From assembly GCF_004010195.1 (NCBI RefSeq), contig NC_057752.1:9631350-9695349 (forward strand): DNA of 64,000 nt, written 5' to 3'. Below the pieces are notes generated by a model. It worked only from the letters and a program-made list of their open reading frames with translations. It did not search any database and was not told the origin of the DNA. Source of the DNA: Chiloscyllium plagiosum (lineage: Eukaryota). The translations under genes and the position numbers were made by a program. This document shows, piece by piece, positions 4,056 to 52,009 of the stretch (position 1 is the first letter of the stretch; the number at the start of each line of letters is the position of its first letter).

Positions 4056-4486
4056 CTGCACAGATCAAATCAAGAGCCACGCTTTAATATCATCGCTTTC
4101 TTCATGCTTTGCATATTGTCTTTAGATTCTTTTTCTCAATTATCTAGTTCCTTCTTCCAGGTTCTCCATTCCGATTAGCTGTTTTGAGAGCAGCCATTGC
4201 AGCTATGAGGAGTTTGGCTCAGGCCGGTTTCTCCTCCAATAGGCTCCTAACCCAACTTACAAAGCAGAAGAATAAGGGCTCACACTCACTCAAGTTAGGC
4301 ACCAATTTCAACCGTGTTGGAACTAGCCCAGAGACAAAATGCAAAATCAATTCAGTCACTGGAGCCTGGACACTATGAAGGGACAGCTCCAGAAGAGACA
4401 CCTGAACTGTTCTGGTAATTCACACCAGAGCCAGCAAGAGAGAAAGTGACAAAGATCTGCTAACTCAGTACAGACTATGAAATGAC

Positions 4487-4570
4487 TTCGAGAAGGGCTC
4501 ATGCCCGAAACGTCGATTCTCCTGCTCCTTTCCTTGGACCTGCTGCGCTTTTCCAGCAACACATTTTCAG
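4487..4570 (+). mobile_element. Short Penelope terminal-repeat insertion
   Basis: Contains gggctcatgcccgaaacgtcgatt. 12-bp TSD CTATGAAATGAC at 4475-4486 and 4571-4582. Confidence 0.75.
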
Positions 4571-4681
4571 CTATGAAATGACCTCTCCCTTTTTCAAAAA
4601 TGTGTCAGCGGAGCCAGTATTAACTACAATCAATGGCTGGCTCTTCTGCAAGTTAAGCAAGTACCACGTTTTGCCTCCTAC

Positions 4682-4896
4682 CTTATCACTATGCTGCTCC
4701 CCAGCAGCTCATTGACGAGGAAGGCTAGCACTGCTGCCTTTTTCTCAGAGCAGTGTGCCTGGAATGATTTGCTTTTCAGCCCTTCACAAAGCTCTGTTTC
4801 AGCACCGTAAGACTCCAGGAAAATCCGCAGCACTTCTGACACATTATCCCGGTTGATTCCAATATCACAGATTCGCTGCCCAAGAAATGTTGCTGA
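4682..4896 (-). CDS. BAZ2A: Post-DDT/WHIM1 exon (SATFLGQR...KKAAVLAFLVNELLGSSIVI), 215 nt, phase 0-2
   Basis: RDNVSE.L and K.A.LAFLVNEL motifs of BAZ2. Acceptor ttttccag, donor AG|GTAGGA. Confidence 0.95.
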
Positions 4897-4994
4897 CTGG
4901 AAAAGTGAAGGATTTGATTGATGACACACCATATATGGGAAAGCTACATATACAACATGTAAAATATAAAGCTTGCTTCAGCTCAATATGCAGG

Positions 4995-5912: not shown

Positions 5913-6460
5913 CGGTGGTGGGGGCGGGGGGGGTAACTGGGATTTCTAGGACCATAGCAGGTCACAGAGCGAACAGCTAAGATTACAAATTTCTTAATTA
6001 GAAGGAAGACTCTTTGCCAATTCACCCTACCAAGGCCCTTGCTTATTTAAAAACCTCAATAAACTCTCCTCTTAGACTTCTCTGCTTCAGTGTAAATCAG
6101 ATTCTCAAATTTCTCTGTATAACTACAGTTGCCAACTTTCGCATCATCCTGATGAACCTATGTTGTCCACCCTGTGTGGCTCTAATGTCTGCGGCTCTCA
6201 AAACCTAGCTGTCACTGAACACGGTCTTCTACTAATGTATTACATTTTTGGCTTTGTGCTTTTCTATAGGTCTTCACTGAATTTATAAAAGCTGAAATGC
6301 TACCGTATTTACAGCTTTACCTTTCTACACTTCCAGAATATTATATATCGGAATCCCTTACCACTGTGTATTCCCCATTCAAAATGTATTGTTTCACACT
6401 TCTCTATATAAAAAAAATGTTCGTCAACCAAAACATTTGTTATATGTTCGCCCATTCTGT

Positions 6461-6776
6461 TTTAGATTAGATTCCCTACAGTGTGGAAACAGGCCCTTCG
6501 GCCCAACAAGCCCACACCGACCCTCCGAAGAGTAACCCGCCCAACCCCATTTCCCTCTGACAAACGCACCTAACACTCTGGGCAATTTAGCACGGCCAAT
6601 TCACCTGATCTGCACATCTTTGGACTGTGGGAGGAAACTGGAGCACCCGGAGGAAACCCACGCAGACACGGGGAGAATGTGCAAACTCCACAGACAGTCG
6701 CCCAAGGCTGGAATTGAACCTGGGACCCTGGTGCTGTGAGGCAGCAGTGTTAACCACTGAGCCATCATGCCACCCC
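6461..6776 (-). mobile_element. HE1-type V-SINE
   Basis: Full head, core and (TCTAA)n tail. Confidence 0.88.
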
Positions 6777-7196
6777 ACGGTGTATGGTGTATGTCTTGGA
6801 TGGTGTATTCCATCACACTCCTGACTTGTGCCTTTGTAGATAGTGGACAGGCTTTGGGGAGTGAGGTGGTGAAGGACTTATTGCAGGGTGTGTCACCTCA
6901 GACTTGCTCTTTTAGCCACTGTATTTATATGGCTAGTCCAGTTCAATTTCTGGTCAATGGTAGCTCTCAGGATATTGATAGTGAGGGAAAATCAGTAACA
7001 GAGTGATGGCTGGATTCTCTCTTGTTTGAGATGGTTATTTCCTAGTACTTGCAGGGTGTGAATTTTACTAGCCACTTATCAGCCCAAGCATGGATATTTT
7101 CCAACTCTTGATGCATTTGAACATGGACTGCTTCAATATCTGAGGAGATGTCAATGGTGCTGAACATTGTGCAATCAACAGTGAACATCCCCACTT

Positions 7197-8010
7197 AGAG
7201 TCATAGAGATGTACAGCACAGAAACAGACCCTTCAGTCCAACCCGTCCATACCAACCAGATATCCCAACTCAATCTAGTCCCACTCCATACCAACCAGAT
7301 ATCCCAACCCAATCTAGTCCCACCTGCCAGCACCCGGCCCATATCCCTCCAAACCCTTCCTATTCATATACCCATCCAAATGCCTTTTAAATGTTGCAAT
7401 TATACCAGCCTCCACCACTTCCTCTGGCAGCTCATTCCATACATGTACCACCCTCTGCATGAAAACATTGTCCCTTAAGTCTCTTTTATATCTTTCCCCT
7501 CTCACCCTAAACTTATGCCCTCTAGTTCTGGACTCCCCCACCCCAGGGAAAAGATTTTGTCTCTTTACCCTATCCATGCCCCTCATAATTTTGTAAACCT
7601 CGAAATTGTCACCCCTCAGCCTCCGACGCTCCAGGGAAAACAGCCCCAGCCTGTTCAGCCTCTCCCTGTAGGTCAAACCCTCCAACCCTGGAAACATCCT
7701 TGAAAATCTTTTCTGAACCCTTTCAAGTTTCACAACATCTTTCCGATAGGAAGGAGACCAGAATTGCATGCAATATTCCAATAGTAGCCTAACCAATGTC
7801 CTATACAGCCACAACATGACCTCTTAACTCCTATACGCAATACTCTGACCAATAAAGGAAAGCATACCAAACGCCTTCTTCACTATCCTATCTACCTGCG
7901 ACTCCACTTTCAAGGAGCTATGAACCTGCACTCCAATGTCTCTTTGTTCAGCAACATTCCCCAGGACCTTACCATTAAGTGTATAAGTCCTGCTAAGATT
8001 TGCTTTCCCA
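7197..8010 (-). mobile_element. CR1 LINE 3' fragment
   Basis: 167-aa ORF 7314..7817 matches the CR1 ORF2 C-terminus; (TCTATGAC)-type tail. Confidence 0.92.
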
Positions 8011-8290
8011 AACTGTTCTGACCTTATAACAGAGGGTAGGTCATTGATGAAGCAAGTGAAGATGGTTTAACACCTACCTAATGCCCACCACGTTAATAAA
8101 ATTGAACAGAGCTGATATATAATTAACACTGAGCTTTGTGGGTACAGTATGTCCAACCCATTTCCAACTGGAGCAACACTTATTGACCCTAACTCTCATT
8201 TCTGTACCCATCAGCCAACTTTCTCTCTGTGCTGCTACATTTGGTTTGGTTGGAGAATTTGGAACACAGTCACTTGTTCAGTCTCCATAC

Positions 8291-8545
8291 CTGGTATTTA
8301 TGTGGCAATCCTGGATCGAGCACTGCAATCTGGAGTAATCGAATGAGCAGATCCTGGATATCAGCCATATTGTCTCCAACATTCAGCAGCCCTTCCTGGA
8401 GTGTATTCAAGCTGGGCACATCCCTGCTGGGGTCGAAGCCGAGCACCTTGCCATAGTTGTGCAAAAACTCAATGACTATGAGACAGTTAGAAAAGGCACA
8501 GCCAGAAAGCACCAGGCCTGGAATGGGGACAAACTCCGGCAAAGG
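8291..8545 (-). CDS. BAZ2A: DDT-domain exon (PLPEFVPIPGL...EFLHNYGKVLGFDP...DPGLPHKYQ), 255 nt, phase 0-0
   Basis: Clear BAZ2 DDT sequence. Acceptor tttcttccag, donor AG|GTATGG. Confidence 0.96.
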
Positions 8546-9573
8546 CTGGAAGAAAAATGGAGGACTATCTATGAATATGGCAGAATTGCATACCCAGGTA
8601 ACCACACCATCTCCATTATTATTGCATGGAGTAACAGTAAACCTACAGAAATATCTAAAGCAAAGTTAAACAGCTCCTTCAATATTTGACACCACCACAA
8701 CTCTAAATTCACTAGCTCCTTATCTCCCTTCCTTATCTGAGGGTACTGACTCACTGGGTTAAAGTGTTATGGTTAGGGTTCCCAATCCTGGATTAATTCC
8801 TGGAGACACCAGGATGCTTCATTTTCATTTCACATCCATCCAGAGTTGGCAATACCTCTGGTATCTCAGCCAAGAAACCATTCTCCAAGAAGCCTCAAAA
8901 GTGAGTAGGTCATAGAACTCTCAACAATGAGCATACCACAGTCAAGAGCAATAGCAGAGAAAGCCACATTTTGTCTGCACATGCAGACATTCTAGTATTG
9001 CGTAAATGAGTAATGATCATCGCATCTCTGAGCTTTTCCGCTCCTAACCTCAGGAATGTTGAGCTTGCTTGTATCGCCCCAGATCAGCCAGTTCAGTCAC
9101 TAAACGGTGCAACAGCAAACAGCACCAACCAGAAACGGTGCCAGGTTTGAATCCTGTTTTGTGGCCAGATCACTGGTTTCACCCAAAGTACTAGTTCAGG
9201 TACATTGGGCACTACAATGATCACTTGGATTAGGTTATGGAACAATCAGTCAGGGTTCCCAGTCCTCAGTCCTGACTGACTCTCAGCAGGCATGGTGTGT
9301 AGAACAGAATCAGGTTCAGATGACCAATATTGTTGAATGGCCTAGTGACACTTGCTTTCTAAGCTTCCAGACGATGTGCAAACACTTAAATGATGTACTA
9401 ATTTCATTCACTAAGTCTGACAGTCATAAACATTTTCTGATAATAAAATTGAGGGAAAATAATGAATGCTTGGACTCAAAGGAGTAATCACTGTTTTACA
9501 TAGCATGTACTATATGAGCCTGACCTTTTCCTTTCGCAGTTGGCTCTAGGTTTGGTGTCAGGTAGAGGTTTAC

Positions 9574-10149: not shown

Positions 10150-10910
10150 TGGAGTCAAGATTAGAGTGGTGCTGGGAAAGCACAGTGGGTCAGGCAGCAT
10201 CCAAGGTGCAGGAAAATCGATATTTCAGGCTAAAGCCCTTCATCAGCAATGAGGCTGGNNNNNNNNNNNNNNNNNNNNNNNNNNNNNNNNNNNNNNNNNN
10301 NNNNNNNNNNNNNNNNNNNNNNNNNNNNNNNNNNNNNNNNNNNNNNNNNNNNNNNNNNNNNNNNNNNNNNNNNNNNNNNNNNNNNNNNNNNNNNNNNNNN
10401 NNNNNNNNNNNNNNNNNNNNNNNNNNNNNNNNNNNNNNNNNNNNNNNNNNNNNNNNNNNNNNNNNNNNNNNNNNNNNNNNNNNNNNNNNNNNNNNNNNNN
10501 NNNNNNNNNNNNNNNNNNNNNNNNNNNNNNNNNNNNNNNNNNNNNNNNNNNNNNNNNNNNNNNNNNNNNNNNNNNNNNNNNNNNNNNNNNNNNNNNNNNN
10601 NNNNNNNNNNNNNNNNNNNNNNNNNNNNNNNNNNNNNNNNNNNNNNNNNNNNNNNNNNNNNNNNNNNNNNNNNNNNNNNNNNNNNNNNNGTTAAGAGTGC
10701 AATAGGTGGATGGAGGTGGGGGTAAAGGTGTTAGATCAGAGGGGAGGGTGAAGCAGATAGGTGGGAAGGAAGATGGACAGGTCATGGGGGACGGTGCTGA
10801 GCTGGAAGGTTGGAACTGGGGTAAGGTGGGGGGAGGCAAAATGAGGAAACTGGTGAAGTCCACGTTGATGTCCTGGGGTTGAAGGGTTCCGAGATGGAAG
10901 AGGAAATTTT
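10150..10910 (-). mobile_element. Penelope-like 3' fragment spanning the assembly gap
   Basis: Right of the gap reads GTLQPQDINVDFTSF (GIY-YIG C-terminus). Left of the gap is the hammerhead-bearing terminal repeat (CTGATGAAGGGCTTTAGCCTGAAA on minus). Confidence 0.7.
10259..10689. other. Assembly gap (N run)
   Basis: Seen directly. Confidence 0.99.
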
Positions 10911-11928
10911 CCGGAGTTGTCCCAGCAAATACAACAGGATCAGCAAAGTAAAACCAACTGGCAATAAATTGTTACAGGGCCATGATTGTTAACAGTGAGA
11001 GAGGACAACTGAAATTACAGACAATACGCAGCACAGAAACTAACTACTCAATCCAACCAATCTCACCAAGACTCTTGGAGGTAGGGGTTGGGCTGGTTAC
11101 TGCTGGTTAGATACACTCTCTCGGTACTCAGTCATACAAAACATGACAGTACCACACTCAATCACTGGTTTGTGCTGAATTAACAAGCCTCAGCCTGACT
11201 GACCTTAGTATCGGGCACTAAAGCAAGAGAGAAACAGCTAAAGCTGTATCCCGATGCATTAGCCAGTCCATAGGTACAGAATAGACCTTTGAGGGAAGTG
11301 GTAGAGAACTGGTAGAACCTGTGGACATGTATCCCAGTAAGTCAGGCGTTTCAAGAATGGACAAAAAAAGGGCAAGCCTTACTTAAGCTGGATAGGTTCA
11401 AACAGCATCAGCTTACGATTGCATCCACTGTCAGAACCAGTGTCAATCAGAACTTGAGTGGGGAACAGACCAAACCAATGTACATTCTTCCTCTTTGCCT
11501 AGGATGTCAGAATCAGGCACTTAGCAACACAGGTTAGATGTAAATCCGAGTTTTCTCTGGACTGCCTTAGCCCCGATCCCAGAAAACAACCATATAGTAA
11601 CGTCAGCATGGCAATTTACCACACAAGCTGCTCTTGCAGCTTCTCGGACAAGGTTGGCCAATTAGTGTTAATTAGAAATGAATTCTGTTTTATTTCCAGC
11701 ACACTCAGGTCTCCAGGCAACTGGGTTGAAAACCCAGAGCAGTACATTTCATGTGGAAGTTGTAGCAGTTGTCAGACTGAGTGGCTTTACTTCCATCAGG
11801 TCAGGTTGCACTGAATTGTGCCAGCTGAATTCTTATATTACCAAAGGTTTTTCATTTCAAACACAAACAAAAATAGAAATTGCTCAAAAATCTCAGCAGA
11901 TCTGGCAACATCTGTGGAGAGAAATCAG

Positions 11929-11966
11929 AGTTAACGTTTCGGTTCCAGTGACCCTTCCTCAGAACT
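11929..11966 (-). ncRNA. Minimal type I hammerhead ribozyme motif with intact core and stem I
   Basis: AGUU-CUGAGGA-A-GGGUC/ACUG/GAACC-GAAA-CG-UU-AACU. Confidence 0.75.
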
Positions 11967-12475
11967 GATGGCAGCGAGGAAAATGTTGCCTTTTATGCTG
12001 AAGATAGGGCTGGGGGATGGCGCTAAGGGGTAAATGATGGGTGGAGATAGAGCCCAAAGAGAGAGAAGAACAATTGGGCAGACAAAGGAGTGGATAACAA
12101 TCAGGCTGGGAGGTTTAATAGCCGAAGGGCCTGTACTGCAACTTTCTATGTTCTATTAATGGGGACTATTAGTGGCTGACACTAGGTTGTGTGTAATAGC
12201 AGACCATGTGATAACAAGGCGTGGTGTGTAGGGGCTGGGGGAAGGACATGGGAGAAGGTGCCACAACCCCTAAAATTGCCAAACTCGATATTGACCCAGA
12301 AGGCTGGAGAGTTCCTAAGTGGAAAATGAGGTGCTGTTCTTCCAGCTTTCACTGAGCTTCACTGGAGCACTGCAGCAAGCCTGAGATAGAGATGTTAGTC
12401 AGGGAACAGGGTGGTGTGTTAAAGTGGCAGGCAACTGGAAGCTCAGGGTCTTTTTTGCAGGCAGAAGGTAGGTGT

Positions 12476-12772
12476 TTTAGACTAGATTACTTACAGTATG
12501 GCTCAACAAGTCCACACCGACCCTCCAAAGAGCAACCCACCCAGACCCATTCCCCTACATTTACCCCTTCACCTAACACGACAGGCAATTTAGCATGGCC
12601 AATTCACCTAACCTGCACATTTTTGGACTGTGGGAGGAAACCGGAGCACCCAGAGGAAACCCACGCAGACACAGAGAGAATGTGCAAACTCCACACAGAC
12701 AGTTGCCTGAGGCGGGAATTGAACCCAGGTCTCTGGCGCTGTGAGGCAGCAGTGCTAACCACCGTGCCGCCC
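12476..12772 (-). mobile_element. HE1-type V-SINE nested in the Penelope element
   Basis: Same head and core as the other copies; Penelope sequence resumes on both sides. Confidence 0.85.
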
Positions 12773-13536
12773 ATATTCTGTGAAGCCGTCACCCAGTCAG
12801 CATTTTGTCTCCCCAATTTACAGGAGACCACATTGTGAGCAGCAAACGCAGTAGACAAGATTGTGAGAAGTGCAGGTAAAGTGCTGTTTCACCTGGAAGG
12901 TATGTTTGGGGCCCTTGGATAGTGAGGATGGGCAGAGGAAAATGGGCAGGTTTACACCTTTGGCAGTTGTAGGAGAAGGTCCCGGGGGTGGGGGGGGGGG
13001 GGGGGGTGGGAGTTGGTGAAGGAGGAGTGGACCAGGCTGTCCCGGAGAGAACAGTCCTCACAGAAGGCTGACAAGAGAGAGGTGGGGAATATATGTGTCT
13101 GGTGGTGACATCTCATTGGCAGGAATGATGGCTAATGATCCTCTGGATGTGGATGCTAGTGGGATGGTAGGTAAGGACAAGGGGAACACTATCACTGTTG
13201 TAGGAGGGAAGAGATGGGGTGCAGGAGATGGGTTGGACACGGCTGAGGGCCCTGTCAATAACAGTGTTGGAGAAGCCTCGGTTCAGGAAGAAGGTGGACA
13301 TTTCAGAGGCTCCCTTGTCAAAATTGGCCTCGTCAGGGCAGATGCGATGGAGATGGAGGAACTGGGAGAGTGGAATAGAGTCTTTACAGGAAGCAGGGTG
13401 TGAGGCTGTACAGTCACGGTAACTGTGGGAGTCAGTGGTGGATATTGGTGGCCAGCCTATCCCCAGAAATAGAAACAGAGATGTCGAGGAAGGGAAGGGA
13501 GGAGTCAGGGATGGAATTTCAATTTTAATTTCAAAC

Positions 13537-13598
13537 CTTTTGCTTCAACTTATTCAGCAAGGCCTTCAGCTTCTGCTTCTCTTTTTCATTCAGAATAG
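13537..13598 (-). CDS. BAZ2A: Coiled-coil exon (AILNEKEKQKLKALLNKLKQK), 62 nt, phase 1-0
   Basis: Acceptor poly-T-ccag, donor AG|GTTTGA. Resembles the BAZ2A LNEEDKAK...MRQK segment. Confidence 0.85.
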
Positions 13599-13739: not shown

Positions 13740-14013
13740 AGACTCTTAGAAAGAGGCTACTCAGCCCATCAAGTCTATACAGACTCTCCGAAGAGCATCG
13801 CACCCAGATCCAGACCCCCACTACACTATACTTGTAACCCTGCATTTCCCATGGCTGATCCACCTAGCCAACACATCTTTGAACTGTGGGAAGAAACCAG
13901 AGCGCACAGGAAGAATGTGCAAACTCCACACAGACAGCCGCCCAAGGCTGGAATCGAACCTGGGTCCCTGGTGCTGTGAGGCAGCAGTGCTAACCACTGA
14001 GCCACTGCGCTGC
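13740..14013 (-). mobile_element. HE1-type V-SINE, diverged
   Basis: Head and V-core recognisable, with internal deletions. Confidence 0.8.
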
Positions 14014-15539
14014 CATTCATCCACCTGCATGAATCCGATAGCAGGTGGCTGATCTGTTTTAGGCCCTTACTGTGCAGAATCTCTGATTCATGTGACAAAT
14101 GCCACTTTTTGATATGTGAGGGGTGGGGGAGGCGTAAGAGAGGTAGCTCTAGTTAAACTGTTACGGGTCAGCACCTCTCGCTGACTGAGGAGACTGGGCA
14201 TACAACCTCCTCTTTGGCTTCTAACAATGCCGTCCCGTGACCAGCCTTTAAAATGTGAGTGTGAGTGAGCTCCAACCAATGACACCTCCCTCTGGGCAAG
14301 CATGGGACCTTAATTGCCCTGCTCAGATAATAAGCAATCAGGAAGCATTCGAATGCAATAAAATGTGGGCAATCTTTCAGCAAAGTCAAACCAGAATTTA
14401 TAATCGCCTTAATTATAAGTAATCTGTTTCTTGGGCTTCCTTGTGAAATATGGAGCAAACTGTGGAAGGATCCATTACCAAGAATTCCCAAGGGAGGCTT
14501 TCAACACTCAATACAGTTTCAACCTTATCCTAGTACATGCGCAGAAACCTTGGAGAATCAGTCCTGTTATCATATTTTAAAGTGCCCGCTTGCTGGATGT
14601 TTATTGGTTTGCCTGCAAGATGACACATCACGTCAGAACATTGAGCACTATTGATGGGAACATTGTTATATCAGCTTCCTTACACGGTCAGCCGTGTATT
14701 TGAAGTGTGGAAAGTGACACCTGGCCTGTCTCGATAGGAGACACTGTACCTGGGCCATACTGTATATCTGGCAAAAACAACAGACACAATTGATCAGAAT
14801 CTTTTCCAACGTTAAGACTGAAAAAACATGCTTCTATTCACACAAATAAAAATTGCCTCACATTTAAGCTTTAAGTAAACATAAGTAGTTCTTAAATTAA
14901 AGGAACAGTTACAAATCTTATCAGTTGGACACCCAGTCAGGTCCTCATCTTTGCATCGGTTCCAAGGTTGAGCCATGTGGAAGGTGACGTCTCAGTGAAC
15001 AGCTTTCCTCCTCCCTCTCCCCTCCCCTGCATTCTCTACTGAAATCAATGGGCCGCAAAGATCACTGTGAACTAAGGCTGGGCAGCAAAGCATCCAGTTA
15101 CAGTCCCATCCAGGCTTACTATTGGTGCGAAATGGCAGCTCTGGTTAAGAAACCAGCAAAAATATTCTTTTCAAAACAAAAACGAGGCGAACAGCAGATT
15201 TCAACTGCATATTTGCTGACAGTTTGAGCTAACATTTAAATTACAAACAGAGGTAAGCCACTTCAGCCCTTCAAGCATGCTCTGCCTTCAGTAAGATCAT
15301 GGCTGATCCAATTCCTCCGCATTCCACCTACCCCCCCATTAATTTTTGCCCCCATGCTTAGCAAGAGTCTATCCACTTCTGTCTTACAAGATATTCAGAA
15401 TTCTGTTTCCACCACCTTTTGAGGGAGAGAAGTCCAAATACTCACAACCCTTTGTGATTAAATATTTCTCCTTATCAATGTCTTAAATGGGTGAACCCAC
15501 CCCCCCCCCCCAATATTTTTAAACAGTGACCTTTCAGAA

Positions 15540-22499: not shown

Positions 22500-24100
22500 C
22501 AGGAATTAGGGACTCCAGCAGTTTGTGCAGAGGGCTACAAGCTACAAAATTCTTATAGTTTATGAAGGGTCACAGAAGAGAAAAATGTTGAATCAATTCA
22601 GCTTATGCAGGACTTAATGTGGTTCAGGTGGTATGAGAATGCCTTAGGGCTGGAGAATGAGAGATGGGAGAACAGTATTAATGGCAGGAGACAAGGCATG
22701 GGAGAGGCACAGGAGTTTTGATGTAGTGACAATAGGGCAAAGGTAGGTTCGCGATGTTATCGAGCATGAGATTGAAGGACAAGAGAGGATTGAGGGAGAT
22801 AAAGAACTACATGGATAAGATGAATTTAATAAAGGCTGAGGTATATCGTAGGGAGGCAGACACTGAATATTGTAGTGGTAATAACGTGGGGGATAATGAC
22901 AGAGGTTAGAGTGAGATATATCAGAGAGTTCTTTTTCTGAGGTGATAGTTGAAGGAGTTTGGAAAATGCAGAGGTGTATTTAATATAAAAGACATGAGGA
23001 AATGATTGGAGTGTACAGTGTTGGTGATAGAACATCCTAAATGGCTCAAGGATACATGCTGATGGAATCAGTGTGCTGTAGCTGTCCAATGGGGACAGCG
23101 AGATTCAGGGATGAGGAAAACAAGCGTCAGATGAAGTGAGGAACGATGAGCTTAGGTCAATCTAAAATTGTTGAGAAGAAGGAGTTATTCAGTGTGAAGG
23201 CTGATGGCAGACAAGGGTATGGGGGGAGCGAACTCAGAGTTGGAGGTTGTTGTTGAGAATGTGTTGCTGGAAAAGCACAGCAGGAAAACCAATGTTTCGG
23301 GCTAGAGCCCTTCATCAGGAATCCGGTGATTTTCCTGCTCCTCAGAAGCTATCTGACCTGCTGTGCTTTTCCAGTAACACACTCTCAACTCTGATCTCCA
23401 GCATCTGCAGACTTCACTGTCTCCTCAGAGTGGGAGGTTCCTGAGGCATGTGACGGATAAGAAGAACCATGATGGAGAGGTGGACAGAGTGAAGTGTTTG
23501 AACATAAGGGAAACAGGAGAAAGGGGGAATAAGTATGACACTTCAACCACTGGTGATTTGGTGGAACATGGAACAGGAAGGAGTGGGCAGGTAGTGAATT
23601 GGGAGGATGTGAACTCACAAGAAGCAGGAATTTCTGAAGGCTGGTACAGAGAGGCAGGCCAGAGCTTTGGTAAGTGGGTAGTTGAGTGATGAGAGAAAGA
23701 GACAAAATATTGAGACTGGAGTGTGACTCAGAAGTGCAAAGAGGAAGAAGGAAGTTGGCAAAACGTTTGAGAGATTAATAAGGTACCGTGAGATAGCAAC
23801 ACAGCAGTTGAGTGGTGACTCAGGTACGTGTCAGTGTAGGTGTGGAGAAGGATACTCAGCCTTGGGCAGAGGGAAGCTGTTCTGTTCAAAGGTAGCATAA
23901 CGTGTGGGTCAAGAAACACCAGCAATAATGGTTACAAAACAATCAAAACATAGAGTTCCGGTTCGAGGAGTGGTGACAGATGGGAATGATGCTACAACTC
24001 AAACAGGAATTGAGTGAAGCCTCATGACAGGCTGGGGTAAGTTCGGAGACTGATTGGGAACAACTGCAAATGCCAAGGTTAACAAAGTTCAAAGTGAAGA
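22500..24100 (-). mobile_element. Probable highly decayed L2-like LINE
   Basis: Strongly purine-rich plus strand with faint RT-region similarity on minus; no intact motif. Confidence 0.35.
23249..23423. mobile_element. Short Penelope terminal-repeat insertion with inverted 5' part
   Basis: 16-bp TSD CTCAGAGT(T/G)GGAGGTT at 23233-23248 and 23424-23439. Inverted arms; hammerhead-like core on minus. Confidence 0.8.
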
Positions 24101-32336: not shown

Positions 32337-34117
32337 CTGTACAAAATTTAAAAAAAGGAGCACCATTACATTTGGCATAAACAGCTTTTCACAGATGCAC
32401 AAGCCGATATCTCAAAGGGCATCAATACCATTTTTGCTCCAAAATAGAAAAATGAGTAACATTTGCTCAAGTTTTACCTACCTCCCCACCCCACGTCACC
32501 ACCCCCCTGCCCCAACCAGTAAAACAAGTGCTGACTCACAACTTGACAAAGACAAGGATTGGTTCAAGTTCAAATTTAATCTTGTAGCCTAAAGAATAAG
32601 TAGGTGTCTCCAAGCCAAAATACCTCCCTGGGCACTCTTTCCTTCAAAAGGATTTGTGAATATTCTTTGTTGCTGAATAATTAATCCAATTTGATATCCA
32701 ATATTACTAATACTGGGTGCTTTGTAATAGCAGCTGTGGTCACCATTTGGGAACCGATGTTTGTGGGTCATATTTTTCCTTCCGTTCTACTGGCTTTCAC
32801 CATCTCAATCTTATTTTGGCTGTTGACGAGGCAGGCAATACGGCGAAGAAGCTACAGTTGTACAAAGCCTTAATGTAGTAAAACCTTCCAGCCAAGGCAC
32901 TTTGCAAGAGCAAATTTAAGAGGGAGGCGTTCCATTTCTGAGCTCTTAATGGAAGGATATGACAAGAAATTGAGGAATCCAGCCCATGGTTATTTTGTCC
33001 TTTAATTTTCTCTTCTTTCATCACTCTAGCTGCTTTTCTCTATTTGCTGTTGAGAGGGTGGTGATGAGCTGCCTTCTTGAAGTGCTGAAGCCCATGTCCT
33101 ACTGGCTACTGCCTTCAGCTTCCATGTTGGAAGATACACTGAGTACACTTCAGTGGGGAACTTTAACACCCATCACCAAGAGTGGCTCAGTGGCATCACT
33201 ACTGCCTCAGCTGGCTTAGTCCTAAAGAACATAACAACTAGACTGCACCTGGGAGATGGTGAGGGAACCAACAGGAGGGAAAACCCAATTTGACATCCTC
33301 CTCACTCATCTACCTGTGGCAGATGCATTTGTCCAACACTATACTGGTAGGAGTGACCACTGCACAGTCCTGTGGTGACAAAACCCCAACGGAACACTTT
33401 CAATGTGTCGTGTGTTTAATAGGATAATATTCAGAAAAGATATAACAACTCAAGGCTGAGCATCTACGAGGTGCTGTGGGCCACCGACAGCAGAAATGTA
33501 TTCAACTGCAATCTGTAACCTCGTGGTCTGGCATTTTTCCCCGCTCTAGCGTTATCAAGTTAGGGGATCAGTTCTGATTCAATGAAGAATGCAGAAGATC
33601 ATGCCAGGAGCAGCACCAGGTACATGCTGGACCACAGAAGCAACATGAGACAGACATAAAGAAGCGATCCTAAAACAGTGGATCAGATCTAAGCTCTGCG
33701 GTTCTGCCACATGCAGTCCTTCATGGTGGTGGACAGTTAAACAACTCACTGGAGGAGGCCGCTCGAACATTTCCATCCTCGACAATGAGGGAGCTCAGCA
33801 CGTTAGTACAAAAGACAATGCTGAAGCATTTGCAAACCATCTTTAGCCAGACGTGACAAATGGATGATCCATTTCAGTCACTTCGTGAAGTTCTCAGTGT
33901 CTCAGGTGCCAGTCTTTAACCAATTTGATTCACTCCATGTGATATCAAAGAACAGCTGAAGGGACTGAATACTGCAAAGTCTATGGACCGTGACAGATTT
34001 CCAGACTTGTGCTCCAGGACTAGAAACAAGGCTAAAAAAGTTGAGAGACAGCTCAGAATAAGACAGAAGGCTGTGAATTTGCAAAGAAACATTTGTTATA
34101 TGCATTTGTTCGTTCAT

Positions 34118-34440
34118 TTTAGATTAGATTAGATTCCCTACAGTGTGGAAACAGGTCCTTCAGCCCAACCAGTCCACACTGACCCTCCGAAGAGTAACCC
34201 ACCCAGACCCACTTCCCTCTGACTAATGCATCTAACACTCTGGGCAATTTAGCATGGCCAATTCACCTGAGCTGCACATCTTTGGACTGTGGGAGGAAAC
34301 CGGAGCACCCGGAGGAAACCCACGCAGACACGGGGAGAATGTGCAAACTCCACACAGACAGTCGTCGAAGCCTGGAATCGAACCTGGGACCCTGGTGCTG
34401 TAAGGCAGCAGTGCTAAACACTGAGCCACCATGCCACCCC
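34118..34440 (-). mobile_element. HE1-type V-SINE
   Basis: Full length, highly similar to 6461-6776. Confidence 0.88.
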
Positions 34441-35224
34441 TTTTGTGGAGTTACGTTTTGACCAGAGCAGGGAAAAACAATGACCCCGGTACTTGAACTT
34501 GGAAAAAAAAGCAGAACAAATCCAACCCATTCAACACCACCACACAAGACTGCTCACAATCATCATCAAAGTGATGGAAGTTGTTGTCAATTGTGCTACC
34601 AAGAAACACTTCAACAATAATCTACTCATCAAACATACCAGTTTGGATTTGCCAAGCTGATGGGTTCCCAAGATCATTACAGTCTTGATCCAAACACGGA
34701 CAGAAGAGCTGAATTCCAGAGGTGAGGGGAGACTGCCTATCCTTGACATCAAGACAGCATTTGACAAAGTGTGGCAGGAAAAAGCTCTTGCAAAACTGGA
34801 GTCCATGGAAATCTGGGGGAAATTTCGCCACTGGTTGGAATCCTATCCAGAACAACAAAAAATGTTTGTGCATGTTGAAGGTCAAAGATTTCAGCCCAGG
34901 AGATCTCTGCAGGAGTTCCTCAGGGGAGTGTGCGAAGCCCGACAATCTTCAGCTGCTTCACCACTGACCTTTCCAGTCAGAAATGGGGATGTTCACCGAT
35001 GACTGCACAATATTCAGCACCATTTGCGACTCCTCAGATACTGGAGCAGTAATATCCAGGCTTGGCTGACAAATGGCAAGTTACATTCACACCACACAAG
35101 AGTCAAGTAATAACTATTTCCAGTAAGAGAGAATGTGACTGTTTATACCACTGCTGAATCCCCTACCATCCTGTCATTACCATTGACCAAAACCTGAACT
35201 GGACTGAACTGTATACATACAAGA

Positions 35225-35417
35225 GTCGAGAGAGTGGTGCTGGAAAAGCACAGCTGGTCAGGCAGCATCCAAGGAGCAGGAGAATCCATGTTTTGGGCAA
35301 AAGCCCTTCATCAGGAATGTCGATTCTCCTGCTCCTCGGATGCTGCCTGACCTGCTGTGCTTTTCCAGCACCACACGCTCTACTCTAATCTCCAGCATCT
35401 GCACTCCTCACTTTCGC
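35225..35417. mobile_element. Short Penelope terminal-repeat insertion forming a long inverted repeat
   Basis: 16-bp TSD CTGTATA(C/A)ATACAAGA at 35209-35224 and 35418-35433; inverted arms of about 55 bp. Confidence 0.8.
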
Positions 35418-35813: not shown

Positions 35814-36019
35814 CAAGCACCTTCCTAACCCTCCCCCCAGCCCCAGCCCCACCCCCCTATTTATCGCCCAGCTCCCTTGCCCCACCCCCACATTCCTGAT
35901 GAAGGGCTTATGCCCAAAACAGCGATTCTCCTGCTCCCTGGATGCTGCCTGAACTGCTGTGCTTTTCCAGCGCCACATTTTTCCACTCTGATCTCCAGCA
36001 TCTGCAGTCCTCACTTTCT
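35814..36019 (+). mobile_element. Short Penelope terminal-repeat insertion
   Basis: 11-bp TSD TCTACCTACAC at 35803-35813 and 36020-36030; decayed hammerhead attcctgatgaagggcttatgcccaaaa. Confidence 0.8.
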
Positions 36020-36039
36020 TCTACCTACACTGTATGGAT

Positions 36040-36427
36040 CTGGATGTAGGTTTGCTCGCTGAGCTGGAAGGTTCATTTTTAGATGTTTCGTCACCATACT
36101 AGGTAACATCTTCAGTGAGCCTCTGAATGAAGCATGACAGTCCAACCGGAATCCATCAACAAACAGATTGACTTGGATCCCTTTCACCACCCCCTGAGAA
36201 AAAGCACAGGAAATGACGTCACCACAGGAAATGACATCGCCAACCCGAGGAAACTCAAACATATAAATAGAAAGCAAGCTACACCACCAGTGCTTCATTC
36301 GGAGGCTCACTAAAGATGTTACCTAGTATGGTGACGAAACATCTGAAAAACGAACCTTCCAGCTCAGCGAGCAAACATACATCCAAAACCTCAACCTGAG
36401 CTACAAATCTTCTCAAAACTTGCTAAT
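36040..36427 (+). mobile_element. Penelope-like 3' fragment with inverted terminal repeat (related to the element at 1-722)
   Basis: 9-bp TSD TGTATGGAT at 36031-36039 and 36428-36436. About 36041-36134 is inverted against about 36291-36385. The end gagctacaaatcttc is shared with 703-717. Confidence 0.8.
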
Positions 36428-36530
36428 TGTATGGATTGCAGTGGATCGAGAAAGCAGCTCACCACCACCTCCTCCAGGACATTCAGGATGACCAAAAAAT
36501 GCTGGGCTCACCGACACTGGCACGGTGGCA

Positions 36531-36840
36531 AGGGCGGCACGGTGGCACAGTGGTTAGCACTGCTGCCGCACAGTGCCAGAGACCCAGGTTCAATTCTCGC
36601 CTCAGGCAATTGTCTGTGTGGAGTTTGCACATTCTCCCCGTGTCTGTGTGGGTTTCCTCTGGGTGCTCCGGTTTCCTCCCACAGCCCAAAGATGTGCAGG
36701 TTAGGTAAATTGGCCATGTTAAATTGCCCATAGTGTTAGGTAAGGGGTAAATGTAGGGGAATGGGTCTGGATGGGTTGCTCTTTGGAGGGTCGGTTGGGC
36801 CGAAGCACCTGTTTCCACACTGTAAGTAATCTAATCTAAA
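36531..36840 (+). mobile_element. HE1-type V-SINE
   Basis: GGGCGGCACGGTGGCACAGTGGTTAGC head, GGTTCAATTC B-box, core, TAATCTAATCTAA tail. Confidence 0.9.
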
Positions 36841-36876
36841 AAAAAACTCAAGAATTTTAAAAGGGAATCAGATTAC

Positions 36877-37086: not shown

Positions 37087-38082
37087 CTGCAGAATTAGTG
37101 AATAAAGGAAATTATCATACAGTGAGCAAGTTAAGAAACCTCCACCACATTTAGACCAAGACATGACATCTTCAGATAGTCCAGGTAAGAGTCGACACTA
37201 CATTTTTTCAAGACATTCTTACATATTTTTAATTCACTAGTCGTGGAGCAGCATAGTCAGATGGCTGAGAACTAATCTCACATTCAGGGAAGGCATGAGA
37301 GATCAAGATAGGGCAAACAAATTCAGCATTCTCCTTTACCGTACCTCCATCCCCACTGCCAAACTACACCTAAAACGTTCTCATCCACTCCACAATTCCT
37401 TTTATTCCCTCCCTCTCTTCACCCTTCCTCTCCTGAATAGATTCCAGGAGTGTTGGTCGCACTGTCATCTCCTATCTAAGTGTCCTTTCTTCATGTACGA
37501 GTCTAGATCGAGACTATTTGATGTGGGAGCCATGACAGGTGAGCCTATCCTGTACTTGATATTTACCCATAGGTACTTTATATCAGCGAGATATGGAGGT
37601 GGAGAAGCATTGGGTAGTGATAAGGAACAGAAATCCACACTTCTAGCCCAAGAGCCCTGGATCCTAATTGTAGTGTTCTACCCAAGACTGGCTAAGGAAA
37701 TGAGATGAACCAAGACATTTCTAATCCTCATGGTCTGTATGGATCAGTAACACAGCGAACCACTGAAGTTGTTCTATTTACCATCTCTCAATGGCAACTG
37801 TGTGGTATGACAGAGAACAGAACAGGTTCACTACTAGGATTCTTCTCATGTAAGCTCACAATCCTTGACTATCGGTGGCGAAAGGCTCTGATGTTATGCT
37901 ACGTTGTGGGATGTTTACACCAATGCACACCTAACTGTCCAAACTAAGCAGGATGGAAATGCAATATTCTGGGTAAAATCACCATGGAAAAATGTACAGC
38001 AGTCAATGAGAATGAAGGAGGCACTGTGCTTTTCAGGAATTTCCAATTCGTTCTCATTAGAGTCATTGCCTTCAGACAATGG

Positions 38083-38575
38083 TATGAAACTTGAAAGGTG
38101 CATTAAAGATTTACAAGGATGTTGCCAGGGTGGGAGGGTTTGAGCTACAGGACTGTTGAATAGGCTGGGGCTGTTTTCCCTGGAGTGTCGGGGGCTGAGG
38201 GGTGTCCTTATAGAGGTTTATAAAATCATGAGGGGCATGGATAGGGTAAATAGACAAAGTCTTTTCCCTGGGGTAGGGGAGTCCAAAACTGCAGGGCATA
38301 GGTTTAGGGTGAGAGGGGAAAGATATAAAAGAGACCTAAGGGGTAACTTTTTCACACAGAGGGTGGTGTATGTACAGAATGAGCTGCCAGAGGAAGTAGT
38401 GGAGGCTGGTACAATTACAACATTTAAAAGGCATCTGGATGGGTATATGAATAGGAAGGGTTTCGAGGGGTATAGGCCACGTGCTGGCAAATGGGACTAG
38501 ATTAATTTAGGATATCTGGTCAGCATGGACAAGTTGGACCGAAGGCTCTGTTTCTGTGCTGTACAACTCTATAAC
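38083..38575 (+). mobile_element. CR1 LINE 3' fragment
   Basis: ORF 38156..38500 (LGLFSLE.R.LRG...RGNFFTQRVV). Confidence 0.92.
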
Positions 38576-38815
38576 TAATCACTAGACTCTGCAAATTATC
38601 AGAAAGGCTTTTGATTTGACATATGGAAAGGAATTCATAAAACTAGTACCCTTTTAACAAAGTGGCCAATTAAAAGGGAGCTGGGTCCAGTGACTCAGAG
38701 GGGAGATGTTTTAGCTGCTTACTACTGAGCCATTCAAACCTGAAAAGCTACAGTCTTAATGTACATTGTCAGAGCTCCTTGGAGTTCAGTTGCCATTTGC
38801 ACTGAGTTGGTTGCT

Positions 38816-38870
38816 GTTGTGGTTCTGTTCGCCGAGCTGGGAATTTGTGCTGCAGACATTTCGTCCCCTT
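38816..38870 (-). mobile_element. 55-bp Penelope 3'-terminal fragment
   Basis: Near-exact reverse complement of about 638-692. 11-bp TSD AGTTGGTTGCT at 38805-38815 and 38871-38881. Confidence 0.8.
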
Positions 38871-41230: not shown

Positions 41231-42237
41231 AATGTTTTCCCAACATCAGCTACTCTCCAACCGCAGCCTTGAAGACACCGATTCTCACTCAAGTATTGGT
41301 TCATGGATAGAAACCACAGCAAAAAGCAGGCATTCGGGCTCACCATAGCTCTTCAACTGGTGCTTTCTACTCCAAATCTGGTTTCCTTGACCTATCCCCA
41401 CAGCTTCCTTTTCAAATATTGATCCAAATGCCTTTAAAATTATATTAGGGTGTGCGGTACTTCTATTAATCCTTAGGATCATTAGAAAATGAGCAAAGTT
41501 AGAAGACTTTTGCTACGTAGAGGGTTACCAGAACATGGAATGGTTTGCTACAAATGATGGCTCTAAATCCGGCCTTCCCAGTTTAATCCCAGTAAACCTA
41601 AAACTAATCATTTTATGGCTTATCCAGTTCTTATCCTTTCCCTTGATTCCCTGACTGATCAAGATTCTATCTCAGCCTTAAATATAAACAAGGGCTCTGC
41701 CCCCATAGCTCTCTGTGCAAGGGGTTCTAAAGGCAGTCCTTCTTTTCTGATTGGGACTGGAACGTACACCATCCTCAAATCCCTTGGTACAACTCATGTT
41801 TAGAAATGGCTTTGGAAGCTTGTGCTTCAATACCTCCTCCCTGATTTCCCTTCAGCTGGGTGACGGACTTTCCAGTTTTTAGTCCCATTTGTTTATGGTA
41901 TGTTGCTTTCATCGTTCAGATACAAGGATGAAGAGCATTGTTCAAATAAGTACTTTAACGCCTTCAGAAAGAGAGATGGTTGGGAGATTGAGGGTAAAGC
42001 TGTCCTTTCTGTTTTACAGGTGCTGATGAATCTTGTGGGGTATCTCCAGCAAACCCAGCTCGATGTTTATCAGACATGGGTGCAGTAGGCTAGTGCACTG
42101 CATGCAAAGACCAAAGTATCAAACCATTCATTTTTGTATATCCTGCCTGCTCCCTTTCCTTGCACAGTGCTCAAAATGAAGTCTGTGGCAAGAGCAGCCA
42201 TTGATTGCAAAGGATGCCTGTCATATACCAGGCTGGA

Positions 42238-42407
42238 CAGAGGTGGGTACTGCAGATGCTGGAGGTTAGAGTGGTGCTGGAAATGCAAGCAGGTCAGGCA
42301 GCATCCGAGGAGCAGGAAAATTGACGTTTCGGGCAAAAGCCCTTCATCAGGAATGAGCAAATTCCTGATGAAGGGCTTTTGCCCAAAAGATTTGATTTTC
42401 TTGCTCC
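42238..42407. mobile_element. Short Penelope terminal-repeat insertion with two opposed hammerhead motifs
   Basis: 17-bp TSD TCATATACC(A/T)GGCTGGA at 42221-42237 and 42408-42424; inverted repeat centred at about 42357. Confidence 0.82.
42319..42354 (-). ncRNA. Minimal type I hammerhead ribozyme motif with intact core
   Basis: AUUC-CUGAUGA-A-GGGC/UUUU/GCCC-GAAA-CG-UC-AAUU; stem I is weak. Confidence 0.65.
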
Positions 42408-45064
42408 TCATATACCTGGCTGGAGTCTTACAATTCCTCCTGAACCATGAAGGACATTTTGAGAACACAAAAGGGCATAACTGTCTTTTGAATTTTCTCC
42501 TTAAAATACTTTCTCCTTTCAGCAAAAACAGTCATGTCTGTTAATAACAGAACATGGAGTATTGCTGAGTATAATGCTTTTAATTAATATGTACTTCCTC
42601 CTATGTTAGAGTGTTCATTTATTTATTTCATCTCGTGACATTGCTCACCGCTAGGGCTGTGAGCTCAGTGCAGATGCTTGTTTACAAAACCTCCAAACTT
42701 ATGTTCACTACCATCTCGAAGGGTAAGAGCAGTAGATAGACCACCAAGCCAATCACATCTTGACTTGGAAATATATCGCCATTCCTCCAATGTCATTGGA
42801 TCAAAATCCTGGAACTCTCTTCCTCACACCATTGATGGTGTACCCACACCAAAAGGACTGCGGTGTTTCAAGACGACAGGTTACTACCACCTAGGAGTTA
42901 CTCCAGCATTTCTTATGTTTGTTTCTTGAACTGGCTTGTAACTTTCAGGATTCAGATCAATGGCTGGTGTTCCTGCTCTTGTTGAGTGCTTTGCATCCAT
43001 AACAAGGTGGCACCTATAACAAATACGGCAATTGTGGTGTGACAGTTAGATGCTTGCTGCAAGAATGTTGTCTTTGCCATTCTATTTGTATGAAATTTGA
43101 GTCAAAGAAATGCACACATGATATAGAAATGGATATTTTGACACTTGAAATGTGATGGACAATCACACACTGCACAAACTATTTTGACGAAGGCGATGAC
43201 ATGCTGTTTTATAAGGTGAAGAGAATTACACCTTGCAACGTGTAATATATTATTTTGCTAAATTGGAGCGGTATCCTGTTAAGGCCACAAAGTTTAATTC
43301 CTGTTCAGTAAGCAGGGTGAGGTCATATGGAGTTAAATTGCTTGGTGAGGGAAGTGTAACGATTGAGAGTTTTCACTTGCTGCTCAGAAGCTATGTGTGG
43401 TTTGAGTCTGTAACAAGTGACGTCTGCTTGTGTAAGCAAACCTACCATTCACATGAATTAATACAGATACAATATTTGGCATGTTACTGAGTATAACATC
43501 CCTGTGTTCATTATATATCCCCATTTTCTTATTATATATATTCACACACATGAACTTTCCTGTTCCATCTTCCAATCACCAATTCTTTCTTGAACATATT
43601 CATGGATATCCCTGAACTTCAGTATCTTCTCTTTGGACCCAGGCCCAGCCCACCCACTTGCAACTCAACTTAAGCAATGCATGCTGGGAAGTACGTATGT
43701 ATACTGTAGAAAATCTCAGTCTCTTGGCTTGCTGTCTTTTGTTTCAGCACGAGCAACAACATGGGAAAAAGAATGCTCCCAGACCACCCACACACACCAA
43801 GTGTTCCTGGATCTTATATTCACATTGCCAACAGGTCGGTTATTTCATGGTGTTCACTCACCAATGCAGTATGTTTTAAATGTGCATTCATTCGTTATCA
43901 TTTCATATGTTGCTGCCATTTCCCTTTTAAAAAATGAACATTGTCATCAAAATGGGTTGCAGTAAGAGTCCTTGGCCAAATCATCTTTAGTTGTTTCAAT
44001 GGTGAGTATCCCTCCAGAATAAGGACAGGTGTGGAGCTGAAAATTCCAGTCTTCAACTCCATTTTCCAACTCCACTAACAGAACACTTCACACCAGCCTG
44101 CAGTAGAATGTGGAAACCATCTAGGTCTAGGCTGACAAACGAGCTTTCCCTTCACTTTTCCTTTTAAAAGTGACACGGAAATTTGTCAGTCAGTACGACT
44201 TGTCAATAATTAAGAACAGGACTGAAATCAGACTCGTACTGGCAATCACCTTGCACTAATCAGGGCAAGTTAAAAGCTGTTCTGTTTTACAAGGATAAGA
44301 TGATTAGACCAGGTGAAAACAGTATGCCATTTCTCACCAAATCTCAGCGAATTGAAACATTGGGTGAAGTCTTGTTGAGGTATCAGGAGTCTCACCTGCC
44401 AGCTGTCCAGTTGGCAAGATACCCGCACTGCCTCCTTTTGAGAAGGTCCACACAGGGCAACTCCTCCCAGCCCTTCCTCCCCCTCGCCCTTTTAGCCAAC
44501 TGGTTCTATATTGTAGCTTGTAGCTCCTGCTCAATACATTATAGCATGGGCCACCGTCAATTGGCAAGCTCAATTGGACATTAATTTGTTTCTTAAATAT
44601 GGTGGCCGGGCTGCTCATTTCAGTGCCCACCGGCCTGTCGGATTGTGGGAGTGCACTTGGTGATGGGCAGTGGCCACCTGTAATATCTTATGTGCCCCAC
44701 CCCAGGTCAAAAACACCCTGGCGGAGGGCCTGAAGCTACAGCCCTGTCCTTTTCTTTGAAGTTTAACACAGACTGAGTACAAAACCGGAAGTCCCAATTT
44801 TCAGAGGAGTGAAACATTTGTGAAGCATTTAAACTTTCAGAATTCAACTCTCGACATGCTAATGAAAGAAAAGTAATATGTTAGATCATCACAAAATCCC
44901 ATTTTCTGTCTTAGTTTACAATTTCTGTTCTCCATAGATATGTATATTCATGAAGAGTAATTATTCTTGAGTTCCAATTTAAATGTAAGCACAGAGGATT
45001 TTACATCATTTATTTGTTCATGGAATGTGGGTATTACTGGCTAGAACAGTATTTATTGCTCGTA

Positions 45065-51960: not shown

Positions 51961-52009
51961 TACAATGTCAAGTAATTTTCCTCTATTTTTACATCCATAT
52001 AAACTGTAC

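Follow-up and report, generated by a model that had tools for sequence, protein, structure and literature searches.

Hammerhead-bearing 3' ends of Penelope-like elements in a BAZ2A-like gene of Chiloscyllium plagiosum and the position of their 5' ends

Host gene and insertions in the window

The window (the whole stretch of 64,000 nucleotides that was analysed) contains a host gene on the minus strand and several fragments of Penelope-like elements (PLEs). Seven short insertions had been placed in BAZ2A introns in a preliminary description. A BAZ2A-like host gene is supported by the MBD/TAM exons (Pfam match to MBD, E-value 5e-13), by PDB matches (for one exon BAZ2B ranks ahead of BAZ2A, for the next BAZ2A comes top) and by a DDT exon. 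The insertion at 4487 is probably intronic as well, because the DDT exon at 8270-8665 is not the end of the protein. The features are given below; for arms and ends, position 0 is C3 of the hammerhead.

1..722, plus strand: family B (Poseidon-like), partial tandem of the 3' part of the element, with hammerhead cores at 225 and 619
4487..4570, plus strand: family A (Neptune-type), direct arm only, about +4 to +91, no tail, without CUGANGA; target-site duplication (TSD) 4475-4489 / 4571-4585
8270-8665, minus strand: DDT exon of the BAZ2A-like host gene
10152..10258, minus strand: family A 3' end interrupted by an assembly gap, absent from the earlier list
10690-10971, minus strand: endonuclease C-terminal remnant past the assembly gap, belonging with the family A end at 10152..10258
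11870..13544, minus strand: family C (second Neptune-type), long 5'-truncated fragment with an RT-thumb remnant (13113-13544) and an inserted SINE (12475-12771)
11937-11962, minus strand: hammerhead core of the preceding family C fragment, with a 4-bp stem I, a TATA-like motif at -35 and an Inr-like motif at -4
17787-18008, 18508-18648 and 21142-21384, minus strand: BAZ2A-like host exons with the MBD/TAM domain and AT hooks
23249..23423: family A two-arm insertion, inverted arm about +86 to -4 (minus strand) and tailed direct arm (about +27 to +123); TSD 16 bp, 1 mismatch
35225..35417: family A two-arm insertion, inverted arm 35225-35320 (+93 to -5) and direct arm +26 to +122 with tail, joined via 1-2 nt of microhomology; TSD 16 bp, 1 mismatch
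35814..36019, plus strand: family A direct unit, -82 to +125, including the tail and, upstream, the C-rich tract and a TATA-like motif; G12 of the hammerhead mutated; TSD 11 bp, exact
36040..36427: family B two-arm insertion, inverted arm 36040-36134 (to about -19) and a longer, tailed direct arm; TSD 9 bp exact, 11 bp with 1 mismatch
38816..38870, minus strand: family B direct-only fragment, about +19 to +73, without CUGANGA; TSD 11 bp, exact
42238..42407: family A two-arm insertion, tail arm 42238-42355 (minus strand, about -5 to +118) and short inverted arm 42358-42407 (+43 to -4); TSD 17 bp, 1 mismatch
51957-52625, minus strand: likely N-terminal exon of the host gene

All seven insertions and their TSDs are real: direct repeats of 11-17 bp with at most one mismatch were found at each interval (exact cores of 9-12 bp or more), and in the control for these intervals the same score was reached at 1 of 300 random places. 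The units are the 3'-terminal 55-390 bp of PLEs, bounded by TSDs and with an optional tail of about 30-35 nt; arms end near +92 (without tail) or +123 (with tail). Inverted ends, previously ascribed to the whole set, are present in four insertions (23249, 35225, 36040 and 42238) and absent from those at 4487, 35814 and 38816. Nor do the seven form one family, since self-comparison split them into two unlinked groups: five are Neptune-type 3' ends (family A), two belong to a Poseidon-like PLE (family B), and the GGGUC stem II variant is that of a third family. As elements they amount to common remains of PLEs, and nothing points to a role for the host gene.

Hammerhead motif and parent elements

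Part of the motif CUGANGA-N-stem II-GAAA-NN-UH was found in all seven insertions, although CUGANGA itself is missing at 4487 and 38816. The three stem II variants described before are present, and the conservation of structure that they had suggested exists across different PLE families and not within one new family. In agreement with the preliminary description, the insertions belong to Penelope-like elements that carry the published minimal type I hammerhead, with a bulged base after A9 and a palindromic ACGU stem III (PMC4209133). When a strict minimal-hammerhead descriptor was applied, none of the 12 cores listed in the window passed. Those nearest to intact (225 and 11937, both in long fragments outside the seven) each fail by one internal stem II mismatch. 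The same descriptor was passed by 12 cores in the other genome loci examined and by none in 60 shuffles of the window, and 22,887 exact intact cores of subfamily S1 were counted genome-wide; one natural intact S1 copy lies at L044:4831-4870. Covariation across families, including U3-A8, was also observed. A Rfam search of the window at E ≤ 1 returned no hammerhead and five microRNA-type chance matches, while minimum-energy folds of two natural copies, as monomer or dimer, gave no hammerhead fold, which is little informative because the stems are weak. Judged by sequence and pairing, the motif is a real minimal type I hammerhead.

The family A hammerhead directly follows a 1.4-kb RT, a Cys-linker and a GIY-YIG remnant at one locus of the genome (L046:6211-7630). 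The GIY-YIG match there has an E-value of 0.0017 and lies below the Pfam cut-off; RVT_1 on a related frame in locus L051 reached an E-value of 1e-6 and 29 bits against a cut-off of 29.6, and Pfam was blank for five short remnants. The related RT frame matched full-length RT/GIY-YIG proteins at 53 %. A Cys-rich linker (CxxCxxC remnant), which is a criterion for Neptune (PMC3846280), lies between RT and endonuclease in the translations of L046 and L034. By these sequence criteria family A is an endonuclease-positive PLE of the Neptune type; family C is placed in the same clade. A first look at the genome gave 71,530 candidates for the L046 RT piece; the one full-length candidate that was fetched was mostly gap, with an assembly gap covering its 5' end. 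Family B is provisionally placed in the Penelope/Poseidon clade, from endonuclease motifs in window positions 1-722 only.

Family A was represented by 18 copies in 195.6 kb, which extrapolates to about 3 × 10^5 genome-wide. Two arms were present in 12 of 32 unselected insertions, with the inverted arm coming from the same subfamily, and the two arms of an insertion are closer to each other (0.088) than arms taken from separate insertions (0.123; 36 pairs, permutation P 0.0002). Most insertions are dead tail-end copies of ordinary Penelope-like elements, and both the small self-cutting motif and the fold-back shape of such tail ends are already known. No paper describing these particular elements was found in the shark Neptune/Penelope literature; Repbase and Dfam, outside the search, probably contain such repeats.

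Position of the 5' ends and its possible origins

Ends were counted in 30 loci from a DNA search, one of which (L001) is the window itself. The loci had been chosen for likeness to 35225-35417, and therefore the central elements were omitted from all end counts. The count further excludes five family C clusters, two copies interrupted by a gap or by the edge of a stretch, and one of the two duplicated copies in L031; the jump-alignment parse was noisy, and arm ends were curated. Among the 31 arms that extend as far as the ribozyme's 5' edge, 21 end at -8 to -1 (rate ratio 18); in the position-picked subset alone it is 13 of 19. Genome-wide exact counts for S1, which assume a single upstream sequence and a single mutation rate, gave end rates per nucleotide of 0.064 (+1 to -4), 0.19 (-4 to -6), 0.078 (-6 to -11) and 0.010 (-11 to -19), that is, about 68 % ending within a 12-nt zone against about 1 % per nucleotide farther out. 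Family C piles up likewise (9 of 11 arms, read by eye), and no clear pile-up was seen among nine clusters of family B. A 3' splice site as the source of these ends was ruled out, as family A has no AG preceding -4. This pile-up at the 5' edge of the hammerhead is the one unexplained point, and no description of the like in PLEs was found in the literature.

Random 5' ends had been proposed as the mark of simple truncation, and the choice had been put as one between 5' truncation and a separate retrozyme-like family. That choice is too narrow: the ends are not random, yet the short copies are no separate lineage and form no tandems. The second option would have tandem hammerhead units cleave themselves, circularise and reinsert. 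In its favour, the hammerhead motif is genuine and covaries across families, intact S1 cores are numerous, and non-LTR retrozymes derive from PLE pLTRs and have been reported in one chondrichthyan (bioRxiv 10.64898/2026.07.22.740005). However, none of 16 tandem repeats in the window is a hammerhead tandem, and same-strand family A pairs within 1 kb were not seen in about 360 kb examined. Nor is there a boundary at the cleavage site, where four ends fall in +24 to +32 (0.011 per nt vs 0.007 around), and the 3' ends lie at the tail sites instead. The recurrent junction of 35225 keeps C17, and therefore the cDNA crossed the cut site. Such a mobile RNA family is thus very improbable.

The explanation to which we give slight preference is that the units arise as by-products when autonomous endonuclease-positive PLEs insert, with reverse transcription from the upstream pLTR running off the 5' end of the RNA. 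The active element would be a partial tandem transcribed from its upstream pLTR, and the transcript would have its first base at -4 to -10, just 5' of hammerhead stem I. By analogy with published PLE biochemistry, the GIY-YIG nuclease would make a staggered cut in the target, and one or both DNA ends would serve as primers for reverse transcription, which would begin at two internal sites close together (about +92 and +123) and give arms without or with the tail. If the upstream copy of this initiation site is the one primed, a cDNA of 95-130 nt would result that runs off the RNA 5' end, resembling a strong stop. Short microhomologies would link the cDNA ends either to the target or to one another. 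The template would be uncleaved RNA with the ribozyme merely carried along, and most copies, having no upstream TATA-like motif, would be dead on arrival. In published work, the tail results from two RT start sites, cutting and extension involve both strands, RNA that has not been cleaved serves as the chief template, and the point of initiation is slightly within the ORF's 5' portion (PMC11167929). A PLE transcription start lies within the pLTR (PMC2377424), and TATA plus Inr were reported in one pLTR (PMC3846280).

Eight of nine long family A copies have an Inr-like A at -4 or -6, as does one of two family C copies; Inr matches are easily obtained by chance in a pyrimidine-rich tract. A TATA-like motif at -35 to -39 was found in six of the nine and in both, respectively; that of family A is weak and lies 31-35 nt from the Inr. 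Inspection by eye of the small number of direct-only copies, too few to judge, showed no extra 5' G from a cap. Against the run-off explanation, the end zone is about 12 nt wide and not a single base, family B has no clear pile-up, and the Penelope transcript of D. virilis starts about 120 nt upstream of the hammerhead from a TATA-less internal promoter (PMC2377424, PMC4209133).

The broad end zone also fits a somewhat unlikely alternative, in which truncated ends of the same PLE origin, primed at the 3' pLTR, pile up where the hammerhead meets the C-rich tract, because the RT stalls there, a protein is bound or end-joining is biased. Many junctions contain 1-3 nt of microhomology or a few untemplated bases, one Adineta copy has a 5' junction made by microhomology (PMC3846280), and 5' truncation is the norm in PLEs (PMC8557442). 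However, the RT would meet the 3' strand of stem I first, so that little hammerhead structure should be left at -4. Family C has the same border though its upstream sequence is different, and the end rate falls about tenfold just past -11, while the C-rich tract is still being approached.

Short non-autonomous masters of a SINE-like kind, with their 5' end at the start site and an internal promoter of their own, could instead depend on the Neptune protein for copying in trans. They would account for the fixed 5' zone and the huge copy number. Among about 14 S1-type insertions sampled, one extends well upstream and none is linked to an ORF; the Penelope promoter is internal (PMC2377424), and pLTRs act in cis for trans mobilisation (PMC3846280). 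This origin is nevertheless doubtful. When a tree of 61 arms was drawn (at most 96 columns), short and long copies intermixed and a long-versus-short split was rejected by the AU test (p = 0.0007). Moreover, 12,307 exact S1 matches extend to -19, and the junctions differ among the 12 inverted insertions. A fold-back master for the 35225 form was rejected too: exact genome matches number 87 for its junction and 62,423 for the motif alone, and several subfamilies contain that junction, which therefore recurs and does not come from one master. As far as these alignments go, the short units have no lineage of their own apart from the autonomous copies.

PLE integration is still poorly understood. 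If the run-off explanation holds and the pile-up is the transcript start, it would offer a cheap genome-scale read-out of where PLE transcripts begin, of which template copy is primed and of how inverted arms arise, and the hammerhead would have been left uncut on integrating templates. A tentative extension, less likely than not, is that the short copies, in their hundreds of thousands, are a fossil map of the PLE transcript 5' end with the hammerhead right at the beginning of the RNA, that some units are perhaps hammerhead-headed SINEs with an internal promoter, and that tens of thousands of intact cores could pair in trans in pre-mRNAs.

Comparison with known systems

With endonuclease-positive PLEs (Neptune; Penelope/Poseidon) the insertions share 5' truncation, an inverted adjacent copy, a tail of 30-40 bp, TSDs, partial tandems and solo pLTRs (PMC8557442, PMC3846280, PMC8969392). 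They differ in the strong pile-up of 5' ends at the hammerhead 5' edge, in their very high copy number and in TSD length (9-17 bp here, 8-10 bp in Adineta PLEs). Minimal hammerheads of metazoan PLEs (PMC4209133) have the same unpaired base between 9 and 10.1, G10.1-C11.1, palindromic 15.2-16.2 without loop 3 and U3-A8 variant, and likewise occur mostly as single motifs, with close pairs on opposite strands. In family A, however, stem II is 4 bp long and stem I is weak (2 bp, a U-U mismatch, 1 bp), compared with 7-8 and 4-5 bp in the schistosome motifs, and S1 has at least 22,887 exact copies, compared with about 4,000 motifs in coelacanth and 9,000 in Xenopus (PMC4209133; search methods differ).

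Animal non-LTR retrozymes (bioRxiv 10.64898/2026.07.22.740005) are also non-coding, carry a type I hammerhead and are akin to PLE pLTRs, and dispersed monomers are reported there too. They are tandem hammerhead units by definition, whereas the units here are single or inverted and bounded by TSDs and PLE tails. The PAc Poseidon element of Anolis (PMC11167929) would share, under the run-off model, the two adjacent internal RT starts that give the tail, the extension of both strands and the uncleaved template; it belongs to another clade, and its ORF begins inside the hammerhead.

Insertions and families in the window

The target-site duplications reported in the preliminary description were confirmed: all seven intervals lie between direct repeats 11-17 bp long that differ by no more than one base, and repeats as good were found at 1 of 300 random places. 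When the window was compared with itself, the insertions, which had been described as one family, fell into two unlinked groups (families A and B), and the GGGUC variant of stem II represents a third (family C).

Repeats in the window
Family A, stem II GGGC/GCCC: 4487-4570, 23249-23423, 35225-35417, 35814-36019, 42238-42407; previously unlisted copy near 10160
Family B, stem II GUYACC: 36040-36427, 38816-38870; partial tandem at 1-722
Family C, stem II GGGUC variant: 11937
SINE-like repeat, 270-350 bp, ten copies: 3334-3625, 6431-6777, 12475-12771, 13749-14018, 29553-29663, 34087-34443, 36530-36858, 50911-51225, 51629-51979, 62488-62837
LINE 3' fragments: 7014-8015 (RT-tail frame 7314-7823), 38079-38576, 45287-45589, 46504-47260, 59181-59497

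We take the SINE-like repeat, one copy of which is inserted within a family C fragment, to be a common shark tRNA-derived SINE, and the LINE fragments to be of CR1 type. Family B is presumably Poseidon-like, judging from its motifs.

Inverted arms (opposite-strand copies of the 3' end of the Penelope-like element, PLE, joined to a direct arm) are present in four of the seven insertions, so that the claim of inverted ends fails for the other three. The motif CUGANGA-N-stem II-GAAA had been assigned to each insertion in whole or in part; CUGANGA is missing from two of seven, and no core in the window or in 60 shuffles of it passes the strict hammerhead descriptor, which 12 cores in the loci examined do pass. 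The three stem II variants were rightly described as one structure in different sequences, as the stems covary between families. Because of this covariation and a U3-A8 core, we regard the motif as a real minimal hammerhead at the family level, with decayed copies in the window. The U3-A8 core replaces C3-G8 in both arms of a family C subfamily at two other loci (L043:8547-8773 and L031:5865-6061) and is likewise reported in schistosome PLEs. A fourth hammerhead-like core, with a stem II of GGAG/CUCU type, passes the strict descriptor (L025:1905-1945) and likely belongs to another PLE family.

The 5' border of the arms

Base C3 in the hammerhead core was taken as position 0, which places the predicted cut between +27 and +28. 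The 32 unselected insertions, drawn from the window, the picked stretches and flanks, have 44 arms, whose ends were curated by hand, each being blurred by 1-3 nt of microhomology. Random 5' ends, named in the preliminary description as the mark of simple truncation, were not found: 21 of the 31 arms reaching -1 stop at -8 to -1 (13/19 in the picked stretches alone), and the end rate per nt was 0.127 there versus 0.007 at +1 to +40 and 0.003 at -9 to -130 (binomial P 1.6e-19).

Nested exact patterns of S1, one subfamily of family A, were matched genome-wide 68,850 (+1 to +19) and 39,563 (-4 to +19) times, and 53,979 (-4 to +12), 32,516 (-6 to +12), 17,387 (-11 to +12) and 12,307 (-19 to +12) times. 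After correction for mutation (0.957 retention per base) and assuming one upstream sequence for S1, about 68% of its arms end between +1 and -11, most densely from -4 to -6; past -11 the rate is about 1% per nt. The same border was read by eye in 9 of 11 family C arms, and the few family B copies seen show no clear pile-up. No clear excess was observed at the cut site (4 ends in +24 to +32), and C17 is retained in the recurrent junction. We consider the non-random boundary a solid, testable detail of the PLE mechanism. Neither the pile-up nor these shark elements were described in the largely open-access literature searched; Repbase and Dfam probably list the repeats, and the supplements of PMC4209133 may list shark motifs.

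In vitro work on an Anolis PLE showed that cleavage and extension take place on both strands, with uncleaved RNA as the main template. Reverse transcription begins there at a pair of neighbouring internal sites that define the tail and lie just behind the hammerhead, 111-118 nt into the ORF (PMC11167929). Penelope transcription begins within the upstream terminal repeat region, the pLTR (PMC2377424), and therefore the transcript also carries a priming site near its 5' end. We infer that priming at this site yields a short cDNA running off the RNA start, which would be at -4 to -10; priming from both DNA ends with microhomology joining would yield the inverted forms. The main rival explanation is that reverse transcriptase stalling or biased repair, not the RNA start, produces the pile-up at the same border. 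Of nine long copies of family A, eight have an Inr-like A at -4 or -6 and six a TATA-like motif at -35 to -39, the latter also present in 2/2 family C copies; these motifs lean weakly towards the putative start, such matches being easy in pyrimidine-rich DNA.

Origin of the short units

A tree of 61 direct arms does not set the ten long copies apart as a group (p-AU 0.0007; at most 96 columns). Two arms of one insertion differ by 0.088 versus 0.123 between insertions (36 pairs, P 0.0002), as expected if RNA of a single subfamily was the template for both when the insertion formed. Junctions differ among the 12 two-armed insertions of the 32 unselected; that of 35225 recurs in 18/29 query-selected loci, across subfamilies, but is matched exactly only 87 times genome-wide. 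No tandem array among the window repeats and the loci examined bears the hammerhead motif. The window arrays lie at 24414-24686, 1265-1669 and 50230-50518 (30 bp x 9, 58-78 bp and 143 bp x 2).

Therefore, neither a fold-back master nor a retrozyme (a tandem hammerhead-bearing mobile RNA) fits these data. The choice offered earlier was between extreme 5' truncations and a separate, retrozyme-like family; the intermixing of long and short copies speaks against the latter as well. We conclude that the insertions are real and do not represent a new family of mobile RNAs, being mostly ordinary PLE debris of three families. The young S1 subfamily may include a short SINE-like master, because no S1 copy in the sample was linked to an ORF. 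Chondrichthyan retrozyme families (bioRxiv 10.64898/2026.07.22.740005) may bear on the novelty of the shark elements.

Twenty position-picked stretches of contigs C1 and C2, with 195.6 kb of bases called, contained 18 family A insertions, or about 3 x 10^5 across the 3.56 Gb genome. An 18-base motif of the core is matched exactly 62,423 times in the genome, and exact matches to the intact core of S1 by itself number 22,887.

Host gene and relation to known elements

The window lies on contig C43, and its minus-strand exons encode an MBD/TAM and a DDT domain. The best match differs by exon; the gene is called BAZ2A-like because one exon is slightly closer to BAZ2B and the next to BAZ2A. Motif copies in its reading direction are all incomplete or mutated. 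By computed folding, each strand of the four inverted units gives a long hairpin (-78 to -188 kcal/mol); any effect on host pre-mRNA would be hypothetical. Within 35814-36427, a family A and a family B insertion are separated by 20 bp, and 35225-35417 is a mere 400 bp upstream of them, possibly a local clustering of PLE targets.

At one locus (L046), a 1.4 kb frame precedes the family A motif and retains an RT motif (YIDD), a CxxCxxC linker and what remains of a GIY-YIG domain. Full-length RT/GIY-YIG proteins share 53% identity with a related frame, and first-look candidates for such RT pieces number tens of thousands genome-wide; no full-length element was seen among the copies examined. Family A from +46 to +125 (e.g. 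35942-36019) has an open frame from an ATG at +46 through the tail, and also a branch-point-like CTGAC followed by TTTTCCAG; the stretch could mark where the ORF begins or, as in Penelope, where an intron ends. In addition, a three-part family A insertion (L041:1480-1714) repeats part of its target site within the insert, which suggests two rounds of priming.

The Cys linker marks the Neptune clade, and known PLE features include TSDs, solo pLTRs and a pLTR with both TATA and Inr motifs (PMC3846280). The arms end near +92, or near +123 when the optional 3' tail is present; 5' truncation, an inverted adjacent copy and a 30-40 bp tail at one end are reported for PLEs (PMC8557442), as are minimal hammerheads that have a bulged base and occur mostly singly, at times in pairs on opposite strands (PMC4209133). 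The shark units thus share the anatomy of published PLEs: truncation, inverted copy, tail, TSDs, solo pLTRs and minimal hammerheads.
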